A stretch of 64,000 nucleotides of DNA from a virus (taxonomy: Duplodnaviria > Heunggongvirae > Uroviricota > Caudoviricetes). The translations under genes and the position numbers were made by a program. The stretch covers positions 81,384-145,383 of the IMG/VR virus record IMGVR_UViG_3300031087_000527; one strand, written 5' to 3'. Each line of letters opens with the position of its first letter. The first letter of the stretch is position 1. The notes under the pieces are model-generated. The model searched no databases, was not told the DNA's origin, and saw only the letters and a program-made list of their open reading frames with translations. Shown piece after piece: positions 58,939-64,000 of this stretch.

Positions 58939-59487
58939 ATGAGTTTATATGTGTATATTGGTCGTTTTCAGATTCCACACTTTGGACACGCGAGTGTAAT
59001 GAAACATGCCTTAGAAAAAGGTGATAAAGTATTGATTCTGATCGGCAGTGCGAATACTGAGCGCAGTCGTAAAAACCCGTTTTCTTTTGAAGAGCGTCGG
59101 GAGATGGTGGAAGGTGTGATTGCTGGATTAAAAGAGGAAACAGGGCGAGATATTACTGTTGATATTCTGCCTCTGAATGATTTTGAAAGCGATCAGGCGT
59201 GGGTTGATGAAGTTAAGCGTTTGGTTCCGCAGGAAGCTGATACGTTTATTACAGGCTGTCGCAAGTCGGGTGATGAGAGCACTTTCTATCTTAACTTGTT
59301 CCCTGAGTGGAAAGAAGATTTCATCGTTGAGGTTAACGTTGAAGGCATGGATGTTATCAGCAGCACAAAAGTCCGTGAGTTGTTTTATAAAGGTGAGGCA
59401 ATTCCTGATGTGGTTGCGTTATCTACCAAAACATTTCTGGAACGATTTCGTGTCGGTAATGGTGATATCTTAGCGTCATTATCGTAA
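58939..59487 (+). CDS. Nicotinamide-nucleotide adenylyltransferase (NadM-like)
   Basis: YIGRFQIPHFGH, IGSAN...KNPFSFEERREMV, SSTKVRE; no Nudix fusion. Confidence 0.85.
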   Translation: MSLYVYIGRFQIPHFGHASVMKHALEKGDKVLILIGSANTERSRKNPFSFEERREMVEGVIAGLKEETGRDITVDILPLNDFESDQAWVDEVKRLVPQEADTFITGCRKSGDESTFYLNLFPEWKEDFIVEVNVEGMDVISSTKVRELFYKGEAIPDVVALSTKTFLERFRVGNGDILASLS

Positions 59488-59672
59488 TAAAACATGGCCT
59501 GCTTGCTGTTTTTGGTGGTAAAACAGGCAGGCTTTATAAAATATGTGCAAAAAGCGATCAGTTGATTAAAATAGTGAAAAAAAGAGTTGTACTTGATGAT
59601 CGGATAGCGTATTATTCTCTACATCGAAACGAGAGATAGTTTTTAAAAATCAAAACGTTGAGATAAAAAATA

Positions 59673-59701
59673 TTGTACGGATAAGTGAAATAGAGTAGAA
59701 T
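59673..59701 (+). promoter_or_regulatory. tRNA promoter
   Basis: TTGTAC-N17-TAGAAT, 8 nt upstream of tRNA-Arg. Confidence 0.8.
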
Positions 59702-59709
59702 AAAACAAT

Positions 59710-59786
<77 letters not shown>

Positions 59787-59805
59787 CTTTTACTAAGGAG
59801 TTATT

Positions 59806-59967
59806 ATGTGTGCTGATAGTTGGTCTTTAGAAAAAGGTGAGGTTGCTGATGGTGTATGTCCTGATTGTGAAATGGATACACTTGATGGATATGCTGTGGA
59901 GGGATGTAATTATTCTCCGGTTGTATGTGAAACGTGCGGACATGCTCCGTGTGATGCTTCTTGTTAG
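59806..59967 (+). CDS. Cys-rich mini-protein (53 aa)
   Basis: AAGGAG RBS; CPDC, CETC and additional Cys. Confidence 0.7.
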   Translation: MCADSWSLEKGEVADGVCPDCEMDTLDGYAVEGCNYSPVVCETCGHAPCDASC

Positions 59968-59972
59968 TGAAA

Positions 59973-60048
59973 GGCCCCTTAGCTCAGTGGTTAGAGCAGG
60001 CGACTCATAATCGCTTGGCCGTTGGTTCAAGTCCAACAGGGGCCACCA
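59973..60048 (+). tRNA. tRNA(CAU), Ile2 (ileX-like)
   Basis: GGCCCCT acceptor, GGCGA-CTCATAA-TCGCT arm, nearly the enterobacterial ileX sequence as I recall it. Confidence 0.92.
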
Positions 60049-60130
60049 ACACTTCATATTCTCCTATGTGGGTGTTCTTTACTGCTTGTGTTAAAAAATA
60101 AGTAAAGGAAGCTGGTTAACTTCCTTTTAT

Positions 60131-60216
60131 GCCTCAGTGGTGAAATCGGTAGACACAAGGGATTTAAAATCCCTCGGCTTATGGCTGTACCAGTTCGAGT
60201 CTGGTCTGAGGCACCA
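60131..60216 (+). tRNA. tRNA-Leu(UAA)
   Basis: Type II body, loop TTTAAAA, long variable arm, CCA. Confidence 0.93.
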
Positions 60217-60244
60217 AAAAAGCAATAAAAAGTTGAAAAAAGAG

Positions 60245-60273
60245 TTGTGCATCATGATAGAGTTTGATATGAT
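60245..60273 (+). promoter_or_regulatory. Promoter of distal tRNA/tRNA-like cluster
   Basis: TTGTGC-N17-TATGAT; related to promoters at 59588 and 62960. Confidence 0.75.
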
Positions 60274-60317
60274 GATGTTCTTGATGTGAAGCAGTAAATA
60301 GTTGATTTAAAAGTAAT

Positions 60318-60394
60318 GCGCCGTTAGTTCAGTTGGATAGAACAACCGCCTTCTAAGCGGTAGGTCGCTGGTTCGAGTCCAGCACGGTGCACCA
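60318..60394 (+). tRNA. tRNA-Arg(UCU)
   Basis: GCGCCGT/ACGGTGC, ACCGC-CTTCTAA-GCGGT, CCA. Confidence 0.95.
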
Positions 60395-60399
60395 GAGTT

Positions 60400-60721
60400 T
60401 TCCGGTATTGCTGGTTAAACTTGTCTTATTTAGGTTGTAACTTAAAAAATTCATCCTTCTGATAAAAGTGTACAAAGCTTAACAGTTGTGAAACAGGTAA
60501 GCTTTATTTGGCCCGTTAGCTCAGTTGGTAAGAGCAATCGACTCATAATCGAGAGGTCGCTGGTTCAAGCCCAGCACGGGCCACCAAATCTGTGATATAT
60601 TTACGATGGCTACATCTTGCAAAGATGCGCCAGAAATAAATAGAGGTTTCTTTAATGGGTGGAGCTTTCGGGCGTTGAACCCTGTTAAAAGAGAATCACT
60701 TTCGGACGCCAGTAACCGGAA
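60400..60721 (+). ncRNA. Structured RNA region enclosing the tRNA at 60510
   Basis: Long-range helices 60400-14/60709-21 and 60458-70/60697-706 plus internal hairpins. Confidence 0.45.
60510..60586 (+). tRNA. tRNA(CAU), probably Ile2
   Basis: GGCCCGT/ACGGGCC acceptor, loop CTCATAA, CCA; Met identity not excluded. Confidence 0.9.
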
Positions 60722-60728
60722 TATTTAT

Positions 60729-60951
60729 GTCTCCCTTAGCTCAGTGGTAGAGCCGGGGCTGTAGTTGACAGTGGTTGCGAGATAAAAAGATATTTACGTT
60801 AATCGATGCGTATCAGTTCAAGTCTGATAAGGCTCCAGTAGGAAGCCTTTAGCTCAATGGTAGAGCCTTGGCGGGAAGTTTCCGTGGTCGAGTAAAGAAG
60901 GTGTTATCTCAATAGCAATGCGCGTTGGTTCGAATCCAACAGGGGACACCA
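60729..60951 (+). ncRNA. Two-headed tRNA-like RNA (outer tRNA domain plus inner circularly permuted tRNA domain)
   Basis: Two D-arm/T-arm units whose acceptor and connector helices pair only crosswise; ends in ACCA; no anticodon loop. Confidence 0.8.
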
Positions 60952-60953
60952 AT

Positions 60954-61033
60954 AGGAGAGTGATGGAAGGGGTAGACATCTCTGAAAGGAGTGGCGGCAG
61001 TCATTGAAGGTTCGAATCCTTCCTCTCCAACCA
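60954..61033 (+). ncRNA. tRNA-like RNA with truncated, GAAA-capped anticodon arm
   Basis: GGAGAG/CTCTCC acceptor, D arm, TCT-GAAA-GGA, TGGC-GGCA-GTCA variable arm, GAAGG-TTCGAAT-CCTTC, ACCA. Confidence 0.75.
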
Positions 61034-61040
61034 ATAAAAT

Positions 61041-61175
61041 GGTTTTTTAGCTCAGTTGGTAGAGCGCGAGCGCCAAAAGATCGTTTCTACTTCGGTAGAC
61101 AGCTCCGGCTGGTCAAATGACAACGATTCGATCTTAGGCCAGAGGTCGCTGGTTCGAGTCCAGCAGAAACCGCCA
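61041..61175 (+). ncRNA. tRNA-like RNA with multibranched insert replacing the anticodon arm
   Basis: GGTTTTT/AGAAACC acceptor, canonical D and T arms, GCCA end, about 75-nt folded insert. Confidence 0.8.
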
Positions 61176-61595
61176 GTATTTTTAATCTTTATTTCATTAA
61201 AAAGCAGTATCTTTTCATTAAATCAGCAACGAACGTAACAGTTTTTATTTAGATTTTTATATTGCTGTCAAATACCCATTTTTCATCCATAAAACCATTC
61301 CAGCTATACTTTTCACCTGTATAATTCTCATTTACTTTCACGATATGTTTTTCATATTTTCAGTACATCATTTTAAAGTTCGTTTAAATTGTTAATTTTT
61401 CACAGAAAGCATGTAATGCGTGATTTTTCTATTTTTACTTCTTTCGCCATTATAACTCGTTTAAATTATGTAATAACAAGTTATTCGACCGTTTGTCTTT
61501 CTTTATTGCTTAATTACTATTATTTACTGGTGTTTATTTTATTTTATTTTATTTTATTTTATATATTAATTATTATTTATATTAAAGGGCAAGAA

Positions 61596-62111
61596 ATGAA
61601 AAGAAATAAAAAAGGATTTTCCTTATTAGAGTTACTCTTAACGTTAGGAATCATAGCGGCATTAATAATAGCGGCTTTCATCGTATATCCTAAAGTTCAA
61701 GCGGCTCAAAGAGCGGAATCAGAGTTAAAAAATGTTGCAACTATACAAGCAGGCGTTAAATCTCTTTATAGCGGAATGGCAAATTATCAGGGGCTTAATA
61801 ATAGTGTTCTTATCAATGCTAATGTATTTCCAGAAAACTTACTAAAAGATGGAGATTCTGGAACACAAGCAGTAAATGCATTTGGTGGTAATGTAGAAGT
61901 AAAAAGCACATCTGCTTCTGGAATAGCGGATGCGGGGATTTCTATAAAATATTACAATGTTCCAAGTGATGAGTGTATAAGAATAGCAACAGCATTAGCT
62001 AATAACGTATCCTCTGTGCGAATTAATAACATAGCTACAACGTATACTTCGTTATTGGCGACAAAATGCAGTTCCACTAATAGTAATACTATCGAAATAG
62101 TGTCTTTATAA
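61596..62111 (+). CDS. Type IVb major pilin (PilS-like prepilin)
   Basis: KKG-FSLLE prepilin cleavage/methylation motif, hydrophobic helix, AFGG.V, YYNVP.DEC, C-terminal Cys pair. Confidence 0.88.
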   Translation: MKRNKKGFSLLELLLTLGIIAALIIAAFIVYPKVQAAQRAESELKNVATIQAGVKSLYSGMANYQGLNNSVLINANVFPENLLKDGDSGTQAVNAFGGNVEVKSTSASGIADAGISIKYYNVPSDECIRIATALANNVSSVRINNIATTYTSLLATKCSSTNSNTIEIVSL

Positions 62112-63085: not shown

Positions 63086-64000
63086 CCGTTCTTTTAAATA
63101 TGATCAAACCTGATCATGAACGTATAAAGCAGGTTGTGAACTAACATCAACCTCTTTTTTCCTGCTAGCACTATTCCCCTTCACAATGAAAGAAAACTCG
63201 TTAGCACTTTTTATTTTCTGAGGATTATTTAGCTTTAACCTGTTTTCTAACAGCGTTTTGCCACAAATCACTCCCGGAAAAGCTACCTTAACATGATTCA
63301 CCGCCGCATTGATATCTGCATTTATCACGGTGTTCAACACGCTGTCCCGGAACAACCCTCTCGTTATTTTCCCTTTCTTTACACCACGAACACCATTCAG
63401 TTCAGCAGGCGTAATCGGCTCTTTTCTCAAAGCCATTTGTTTTACTTTATTCACATCAGCCGTCAGGCTGCTTGTCTTCGATGTATAGCTTTCATCTATA
63501 TTCACCACGTCAATACCATACTTTATCGCTTTCTCTTCAAGTAGATTTAATAAACGACCAAAGGGAATCTGGTAAAACTTCTGTTTCGTTTTCTTATGCT
63601 GCTTGATGTTTCCACTGGTCTTTACAAAAGACAGATTTTTAGAAATCACCAAATCAGAAACCGCATTGGTTTTCAGATAAGAAAGTAATGCCGAAGACAG
63701 CTTATTCATCTCTCCGTCAAAGAACTGGTTGCGTGCGTTAAACATATTGCTCATTTGCTTTCTTATATGCTGCCCATAAGACGTATATTTCTCAGGAACC
63801 TGAGAAACCGAGCCGTCTTTTTTAGTAATCTCCCTGTATTCAGCCACGTGCCTTGACAGCTCGTTGTTTAACTTAGCCATGTGTTTATTAAAGGAGCAGT
63901 TATAATGAATCATCTTAGCATTACGATAAACCACGGAGTCGGTATCGCTATCATTAACAAACAATGAAAACAAATGATGCAAGCCAATATCCAAGCCAGC
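63086..64000 (-). mobile_element. Second IS607-like tnpB element, runs off the window
   Basis: Right end identical to copy 1 up to the GG (CC at 63086-87 on plus strand), then diverges. Confidence 0.75.
63104..64000 (-). CDS. tnpB: TnpB-family endonuclease, 5'-truncated by window end
   Basis: AGLDIG...IDESYTSK...NADINAAVN; 23 substitutions over about 295 aligned aa versus copy 1 (manual count). Confidence 0.9.
   Translation of the reverse strand, partial: AGLDIGLHHLFSLFVNDSDTDSVVYRNAKMIHYNCSFNKHMAKLNNELSRHVAEYREITKKDGSVSQVPEKYTSYGQHIRKQMSNMFNARNQFFDGEMNKLSSALLSYLKTNAVSDLVISKNLSFVKTSGNIKQHKKTKQKFYQIPFGRLLNLLEEKAIKYGIDVVNIDESYTSKTSSLTADVNKVKQMALRKEPITPAELNGVRGVKKGKITRGLFRDSVLNTVINADINAAVNHVKVAFPGVICGKTLLENRLKLNNPQKIKSANEFSFIVKGNSASRKKEVDVSSQPALYVHDQV

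Follow-up and report, generated by a model that had tools for sequence, protein, structure and literature searches.

The stretch of DNA analysed here (the window) comprises 64,000 nucleotides, corresponding to bases 81384-145383 of a 259-kb IMG/VR virus record that has been classed as a provirus. On its plus strand, five ordinary tRNA genes are followed on their 3′ side by several odd tRNA-like genes, the last of which, at 61041-61175, is a real and conserved phage gene for a tRNA-shaped RNA without an anticodon. The features of the array and of this gene are listed below, together with the evidence on which each assignment is based.

59710-60586, plus strand: five ordinary tRNA genes, Arg-TCT, Met, Leu-TAA, Arg-TCT and Met (ARAGORN, Rfam)
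61041-61175, plus strand: whole gene, a 135-nt tRNA-framed RNA without anticodon (Rfam tRNA 43.6 bits, with a 74-nt insertion; family model R1 154.6 bits, a score obtained by construction, as this sequence is in the seed)
61041-61047, plus strand: 5′ strand of the acceptor stem, GGTTTTT, partner at 61165-61171 (7/7 pairs covary, 99% of cells paired)
61050-61065, plus strand: D arm, GCTC / AGTTGGTA / GAGC (canonical in the Rfam alignment; stem 100% paired, n=20)
61067-61074, plus strand: irregular connector CGAGCGCC, left of the anticodon-stem position (GCC at 61072-74 pairs with GGC at 61137-39)
61077-61083, plus strand: 5′ strand of the closing helix P1, AAGATCG, partner CGATCTT at 61129-61135 (covariation of the outer pairs)
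61084-61085, plus strand: junction UU (invariant in alignment A2)
61086-61099, plus strand: hairpin 1, TCTAC-TTCG-GTAGA (stem identical in 20/20, loop varies)
61100-61111, plus strand: hairpin 2, the variable hairpin, CAGC-TCCG-GCTG (4/4 pairs covary; loop and length vary)
61112-61121, plus strand: hairpin 3, GTC-AAAT-GAC (GUC/GAC stem in 18 sequences)
61122-61128, plus strand: near-invariant junction strand AACGATT, alternative partner ATCGTT at 61080-85 (AACGA invariant in A2)
61129-61135, plus strand: 3′ strand of the closing helix P1, CGATCTT (evidence as for the 5′ strand)
61136-61147, plus strand: 3′ strand of the connector (A GGC CAG) and variable loop AGGTC (goes with the module; sister tRNA-Thr genes have ATGTC)
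61148-61164, plus strand: T arm, GCTGG / TTCGAGT / CCAGC (3/5 pairs covary)
61165-61175, plus strand: 3′ strand of the acceptor stem, AGAAACC, discriminator G (61172) and CCA (61173-75) (read directly)

A tRNA frame with a branched module in place of the anticodon arm

The Rfam tRNA model (RF00005) matches 61041-61172 with 43.6 bits, against a gathering score of 29 (E 5.7e-6). Acceptor, D and T arms all align to the model, and 74 nt stand in place of the 15 anticodon-arm positions. The acceptor stem GGTTTTT/AGAAACC includes one U-G pair, and its position 3-70 is U-A. Direct reading revealed no 7-nt anticodon loop anywhere in 61066-61147, and ARAGORN in its default mode makes no call at 61041-61175. 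The cassette that replaces the anticodon arm and the variable loop was shown to consist of an irregular connector, a closing helix of 6-7 bp, and a four-way junction with three short hairpins.

An initial annotation of this gene, made from the sequence alone, had already described the acceptor, D and T arms, the GCCA end, the GCC/GGC pairing, the closing helix and the three hairpins, and each of these was found exactly where it had been placed. The alternative pairing proposed there, between ATCGTT (61080-85) and AACGAT (61122-27), is likewise present in the sequence. It is the register chosen by the minimum-energy fold of RNAfold, and the centroid fold adopts the P1 register. The fold energy of 61041-61175 is by itself unremarkable (z -1.72); it is the existence of 20 homologues with strong covariation, and not the fold energy, that places the gene beyond chance.

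The record as a whole contains at least 21 tRNA genes according to ARAGORN, six of which are tRNA-Arg(TCT), and the tRNA set of this phage is without Thr, Lys and Asn. The same program called a CTA tRNA of the amber-suppressor type (genome 248866-248939), a tRNA with a four-base anticodon (agaa; 155071-155147) and a 233-nt tRNA-like sequence with a 144-nt insert (251764-251996). At 60729-60951, two adjacent tRNA-like halves make up one nested RNA, in which the first half contributes the 5′ acceptor strand and the D arm, and the second half the T arm and the 3′ acceptor strand with which they pair. The tRNA-like domain enclosed by these parts is circularly permuted and runs from a T arm through an acceptor hairpin, closed by AGTA, to a D arm. 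In a paralogue with 82% identity, located at genome 162018-162235 (L077:16818-17036), compensatory substitutions are seen in the outer acceptor stem, in the outer T stem and in the central helix. At 60954-61033 lies a tRNA-like gene of 77-80 nt that scores 28.2 bits, just under the Rfam threshold; its acceptor stem, T arm and ACCA end are well formed, and its D and anticodon regions are aberrant. In the relative L062 this gene is absent, and the two-headed RNA is located directly 5′ of the family gene.

A second tRNA-framed RNA is present in the same phage at L082:5904-6051 (genome ~250103-250250). This RNA, of 148 nt and with a variable arm besides its acceptor stem, D arm and T arm, carries a different closing helix, GUCUGA/UCAGA, and three unrelated hairpins at the anticodon-arm site. 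The gene directly downstream of 61041-61175, at 61389-62111, is type IVb pilin-like (PilS N-terminal, bundlin and N-methylation motifs), which is unusual phage cargo, and a TnpB-like ORF (63104-63994, minus strand; OrfB_IS605 and Cas12f1-like TNB domains) is found near the end of the window. A scan of 59400-61500 for promoters and terminators identified sites near the gene that were no commoner than in shuffled sequences.

Members of the family and their conservation

Approximately 20 distinct homologues of the gene were found through exact-pattern scans of public contigs combined with BLAST, and these are distributed over the following elements:

Near-identical sister phage: L009, L023, L071
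Other giant-phage contigs of 171-342 kb: L024, L025, L068
Smaller viral contigs: L057, L060, L063, L064, L094, L116
E. coli phage Jgk1: L053
SSU5-like IncFIB plasmids of E. coli, E. albertii and Salmonella: n=11
P1-like elements: L033, L034, L038, L039
Lambdoid prophages related to Yersinia and Erwinia phages: L026, L027

A covariance model (R1) was built from 17 homologues. The 20 members score 100-162 bits under this model and ordinary tRNAs at most 57.6 bits; the later members L094 and L116 are independent of the seed. A search with R1 returned a single copy of the family in the genome to which the window belongs. An Rfam search with the module alone, at E up to 10, gave noise only, with no ribozyme or riboswitch match. 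In the open literature no paper was found that contains the motifs of the module or describes such RNAs, nor was an Rfam family found for them. An 18-mer of the module had 11 matches in species-representative genomes, all of them random and none in a tRNA frame. Among E. coli genomes, the module was recovered from six plasmids, and one 20-nt exact match was located between ylaC and pdeB in 560 chromosomes; the latter adjoins an ordinary hairpin and was taken as chance, not as a member of the family. Features annotated in RefSeq as “tRNA-OTHER” on SSU5-like plasmids belong to the same family, as exemplified by the 133-nt feature at L055:1228-1360; the label states that no isotype could be assigned and does not describe the family.

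In the model alignment of the 20 members, 98.1% of the pair cells hold standard pairs and 21 of the 38 pairs show changes on both sides. None of 500 shuffled controls reached the observed values, and partners that were slid against each other paired at 30-49%. The covarying parts comprise the seven acceptor pairs, three T-stem pairs, the GCC/GGC pairs of the connector (helix 3, all three with two-sided changes), the outer pairs of the closing helix and the whole of hairpin 2. The second pair of the closing helix, for instance, is G-C, C-G, U-A, A-U or G-U depending on the phage. Hairpin 3 has one pair that counts as changed on both sides in this alignment; it is GGC/GCC in L116 and shortened to GG/CC in L094, both of which were found with a pattern that left the hairpins free.

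A different pattern is seen in the junction. Hairpin 1 has the stem UCUAC/GUAGA in every one of the 20 members, with loops that read UUCG, UUAG, UCCG, GAAA or GUAA. Together with the UU, AACGA and the inner AUCG/CGAU this stem is invariant or nearly so, while all acceptor pairs vary; at the level of sequence the module is conserved more tightly than the tRNA body. The junction core can be written as AUCG-UU-UCUAC...GUAGA...AACGAU-Y-CGRU, and the whole core is found at 61080-61132. As the loops vary while this core is fixed, the loops are only stable caps, and it is the junction core on which selection acts. Phage Jgk1 has AACGAC instead of AACGAU in its junction strand, and both Jgk1 and L060 carry a wobble change (CGGU) that is compatible with the main register and also with the alternative one. 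Since both CGAT copies are almost invariant, the P1 register and the alternative are not separated by covariation. The alignment also showed the acceptor, D and T arms to be under selection, including the D-loop and T-loop bases that form the tRNA elbow.

The initial annotation had suggested a natural analogue of engineered tRNA scaffolds, and this architecture was borne out: a whole tRNA frame holds a foreign, independently conserved and structured module at the anticodon-arm site. The aptamer or protein-binding domain that it had further proposed is a candidate reading of this module. It had also allowed for an insert that is conserved in neither sequence nor structure, and both are kept across the approximately 20 homologues.

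Group I introns occur in some bacterial and phage tRNA genes, and an intron-bearing tRNA gene, from which the insert would be spliced out to give a decoding tRNA, has to be considered for 61041-61175. With introns allowed, ARAGORN does yield a call here, a tRNA-Val(GAC) with a 44-nt intron. This call is an artefact, as its cut leaves no anticodon stem, and no other excision leaves a 5-bp stem with a 7-nt loop either. The insert of ~60-74 nt is, as had been argued from the outset, far under the size of group I and II introns, and it matches no Rfam intron or ribozyme family. At 61041-61175 there is no group I or group II intron, and no bulge-helix-bulge, whose removal restores an anticodon arm. 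Moreover, the insert is more conserved than its would-be exons, and in the sister allele the stem, the loop and the variable loop all differ, having been swapped together.

Transcript data point, weakly, in the same direction. The complete, unspliced gene of the P1-like copy is present in metatranscriptome contigs from two studies, in which DNA carry-over is possible, and one such contig of 147 nt corresponds exactly to the 133-nt gene plus 14 nt upstream. RNA-library contigs of this kind show no RNA ends, strand or level. No joined form was present among the metatranscriptome contigs, which represent the P1-like copy and include none from the phage of the window. The excision that the initial annotation had kept in view is thus neither seen nor possible. 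The gene is neither an intron-bearing tRNA nor a decayed tRNA, and we consider a spliced, decoding product hardly credible.

Exchange of the anticodon arm and genomic placement

The SSU5-like plasmids provide a direct view of how the module is related to ordinary tRNA genes. In these plasmids the slot X in the order Asn-Tyr-[X]-Ser is occupied either by a 76-nt tRNA-Thr(UGU), as in hundreds of sister plasmids, or by the 133-nt RNA. The two alleles are identical in acceptor stem and T arm and differ in the D loop, the whole anticodon arm and the variable loop, which indicates that the whole arm was exchanged and that no insertion into a loop took place. A corresponding arrangement is found in P1, which carries trnA(Asn)-trnT(Thr), and in P1-like elements, where Asn is followed by the family RNA at that place. 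The cassette sits on many different tRNA bodies in unrelated phages; the presence of a conserved module on such diverse bodies points to a working, non-decoding RNA. Common to all copies are the tRNA elbow and the module.

In the window, the 23 nt from 61143 to 61165, which comprise the variable loop, the T arm and the base that follows it, recur without mismatch in the local tRNA-Arg(TCT) gene at 60362. Together with the breakpoints of the enteric alleles, this match suggests that the conserved D-arm and T-arm sequences serve as sites of recombination through which the cassette is carried from one tRNA gene to another, and such recombination may have been the route by which it spread. The identity of the body itself seems to be of minor importance. 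The discriminator is G in the window and A in the near-identical sister phage L009, the CCA is unencoded in several family members, and in the lambdoid prophages the acceptor stem is extended to a helix of ~19 bp with one bulge. These three features make it unlikely that a fixed amino-acid identity matters, and the family RNA is probably not charged.

Most copies of the family are located in phage tRNA arrays, and no conserved protein-gene neighbour of the RNA was found across the compared loci. In the prophages of the L027 type, the RNA is located between a nutL-like site, whose boxA/boxB look-alikes were judged by eye, and a gene with an N antiterminator peptide domain, downstream of the repressor region. 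Judged from its sequence features, this context is an early leftward leader. In the Erwinia phage vB_EhrS_49 (L083:1540-1700), the region from the nutL-like site to the annotated N gene contains the same closing helix of ~20 bp with a different cargo of ~110 nt. Different small RNAs seem able to take each other's place within this N-leader hairpin. Viewed across these placements, the family RNA would behave as a cargo small RNA put into highly transcribed positions, some of them early.

Comparison with known systems and candidate roles

The engineered tRNA scaffold of Ponchon and Dardel (PMC3753655) keeps the acceptor, T and D arms for processing and protection, and uses the anticodon stem-loop as the insertion site, with the foreign RNA placed on a closing helix. 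The family RNA shares both characteristics, but it is natural and phage-encoded, and its cargo is one conserved four-way junction instead of an arbitrary insert.

The T4 RNAs rnaC and rnaD (species 1 and 2) are small stable RNAs of ~120-140 nt at the end of a phage tRNA cluster, in which they resemble the family RNA. A T-arm-like hairpin is present in rnaC; however, neither RNA has a complete tRNA frame and their folds differ. A search of T4 with R1 matched ordinary tRNAs only and nothing at rnaC/rnaD (L056:1909-2172), so that no homology was found. Similarity also exists with tmRNAs, which combine a tRNA-like body with a multi-helix domain at the anticodon-arm site, at a length of ~350 nt against 135 nt for the family RNA. 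Identity with tmRNA was rejected because the gene has no G3-U70 pair and ARAGORN calls no tmRNA; a reading of the insert as coding for a tag peptide was rejected as well, since indels in hairpin 2 shift the frame and there is no conserved tag ORF.

YrlA RNAs carry a helix that binds Ro60/Rsr and are circularly permuted, ending in a long helix and having the acceptor closed by a loop, whereas the family RNA has the normal tRNA order. YrlA (RF02553; PMC4201824), a tRNA-like Y RNA that occurs in bacteria and phages, is a non-decoding RNA in which the tRNA elbow is kept and the anticodon arm is replaced by a helix, features that it has in common with the family RNA. Matches to the YrlA model reach ~25 bits, against a gathering score of 69, and span the junctions of adjacent tRNA-like genes, for which reason identity with YrlA was rejected. 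Genes for TROVE proteins (Ro60/Rsr) and for RtcB are absent from the 259-kb record. By these comparisons, the family RNA belongs neither to YrlA nor to tmRNA, nor to T4 rnaC/rnaD.

We regard it as reasonably probable that the product of 61041-61175 is a small, stable RNA that uses a tRNA frame and does not decode. The frame would cause the transcript to be handled as a tRNA: RNase P would cut it, its 3′ end would be trimmed and receive CCA, and it would be modified and resist nucleases; in the lambdoid phages the long closing helix would lead to release by RNase III instead. By analogy, the frame probably supplies processing and stability and the module is the working part. Within the module, the junction core would be the active element and may bind a partner that is conserved among Proteobacteria or their phages. 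As no neighbouring protein gene is conserved, this partner probably either belongs to the host or is a widespread factor of phages. The invariant helix sequence could also reflect a ribozyme, a ligand pocket or a base-pairing target.

The likeliest specific role, though in our view still rather unlikely, is that of an uncuttable tRNA mimic by which tRNA-cutting defence nucleases, such as P2 Old and PARIS AriB, would be occupied or misled. The leftward operon of lambda carries gam, the trigger of Old. P2 Old has been reported to kill lambda-infected cells by removing the anticodon arm, chiefly that of tRNA-Thr(UGU) (PMC12445682). In the enteric phage-plasmids, the family RNA takes exactly the slot of tRNA-Thr(UGU), beside or near tRNA-Asn, and the part replaced by the module is the arm cut by Old-type nucleases. 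Together with the placement in the lambdoid operon, this makes a role as decoy or inhibitor plausible. A decoy would be made beside the phage's own tRNAs, or from the early leftward (pL) operon before Gam triggers Old, while in an inhibitor version the junction that replaces the cuttable anticodon arm would trap or block Toprim nucleases or another tRNA-cutting effector.

The module is equally conserved on bodies that do not derive from tRNA-Thr, including that of the window, so the link to a tRNA-Thr nuclease may be an accident of the enteric lineage. In the study of Old, an over-expressed resistant tRNA-Thr gave the host tRNA no protection by competition (PMC12445682), and a plain decoy may be insufficient. 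The paired CNG motif of hairpin 2 (CAGC/GCUG) was considered as a cutting site for Old and rejected, as other members carry CGC/GCG or CAC/GUG. As a separate observation, the tRNA-Thr(UGU) of the SSU5-like plasmids (L054:1228-1303) reads U36-A-A-G39-C-A. The host motif of AriB is U36-A-A-U39-C-A, and a change of U39 abolished the cutting of tRNA-Lys (bioRxiv 10.1101/2025.02.04.636281). Given G39 in the plasmid gene, this plasmid tRNA may be a PARIS-resistant spare.

Several other explanations of the conserved module were weighed against that of a small RNA on a tRNA frame. The presence of one cassette on unrelated tRNA bodies, with breakpoints in conserved D-arm and T-arm sequences and with the 23-nt exact match of 61143-61165 to the neighbouring tRNA-Arg gene, would be expected of selfish DNA that overwrites the anticodon arms of phage tRNA genes by recombination and brings the phage no benefit. 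The cassette encodes no protein to drive its spread, however, and its compensatory changes and invariant core in very distant phages indicate selection on the RNA fold. The tRNA frame is moreover intact in every copy and the cassette also occurs in a non-tRNA setting, the N leader; we regard a selfish origin as decidedly improbable. Alternatively, the function of the element might be confined to cis: as a signal for processing or punctuation it would let RNase P or RNase III separate transcripts, for example the N message from nutL. This would agree with the lambdoid prophages, in which the module is found inside the closing helix of ~19 bp at the place taken in lambda by the RNase III hairpin, and with Erwinia phage 49, in which another cargo is enclosed by the same closing helix. 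This purpose would nevertheless be served by any tRNA or hairpin, so that the invariant core shared by jumbo phages, phage-plasmids and lambdoid phages is left unexplained, and the copy in the window ends its tRNA array with nothing downstream to free. A role purely in cis is improbable.

Ribozyme and riboswitch cores typically combine an invariant junction with peripheral loops that vary, and the closing helix has two mutually exclusive registers; both features would suit a catalytic RNA or a small-molecule aptamer on a tRNA frame. We give this reading a slim chance, since an Rfam search up to E 10 brought up neither a ribozyme nor a riboswitch, the gene is followed by no expression platform, and no conserved metabolic gene is located nearby. 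Finally, hairpin 1 and the preceding UU might mimic the crRNA handle of Cas12a-family effectors, making the RNA an anti-CRISPR. The pseudoknot of that handle needs the bases that flank it, and direct reading revealed that the family RNA has other bases in place of the two A's that precede the handle and of the U that follows it, so that the pseudoknot cannot form. E. coli and Salmonella, whose plasmids conserve the family RNA, are not known to have a type V-A system. In favour of mimicry, the Cas12a repeat handle AATTTCTACTCTTGTAGAT (PMC10583194) has a stem with exactly the sequence UUUCUAC-loop-GUAGA, and in the family RNA the loop alone varies, as it does in Cas12a repeats. Phage RNA anti-CRISPRs against type V-A have been described (PMC10651486), and the Cas12a3 effector cuts tRNA ends (PMC13594972). 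The validated V-A anti-CRISPR RacrVA1, in contrast, matches its repeat at 36/36 positions, whereas here only the 5-bp stem and the UU match, and the motifs of the module are absent from the supplements of the RacrVA1 paper. Mimicry of a Cas12a handle is very improbable.

In its architecture, the gene at 61041-61175 represents a natural use of the tRNA-scaffold trick that RNA engineers invented, in a class of genes that genome pipelines label as tRNA-OTHER or miss. The natural plasmid pairs that differ only in carrying tRNA-Thr or the family RNA allow direct testing in E. coli. If the RNA were a decoy for tRNA nucleases, a role we hold to be rather unlikely, it would represent a new class of counter-defence. 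Current readings of phage tRNA genes see them chiefly as spare parts with which tRNA-cutting immunity is countered. With its tRNA shape lacking a decoding function, and with an occurrence that extends from soil giant phages to P1-like plasmids of E. coli, the family RNA suggests that phages put the tRNA shape to a second use, one that does not involve decoding.
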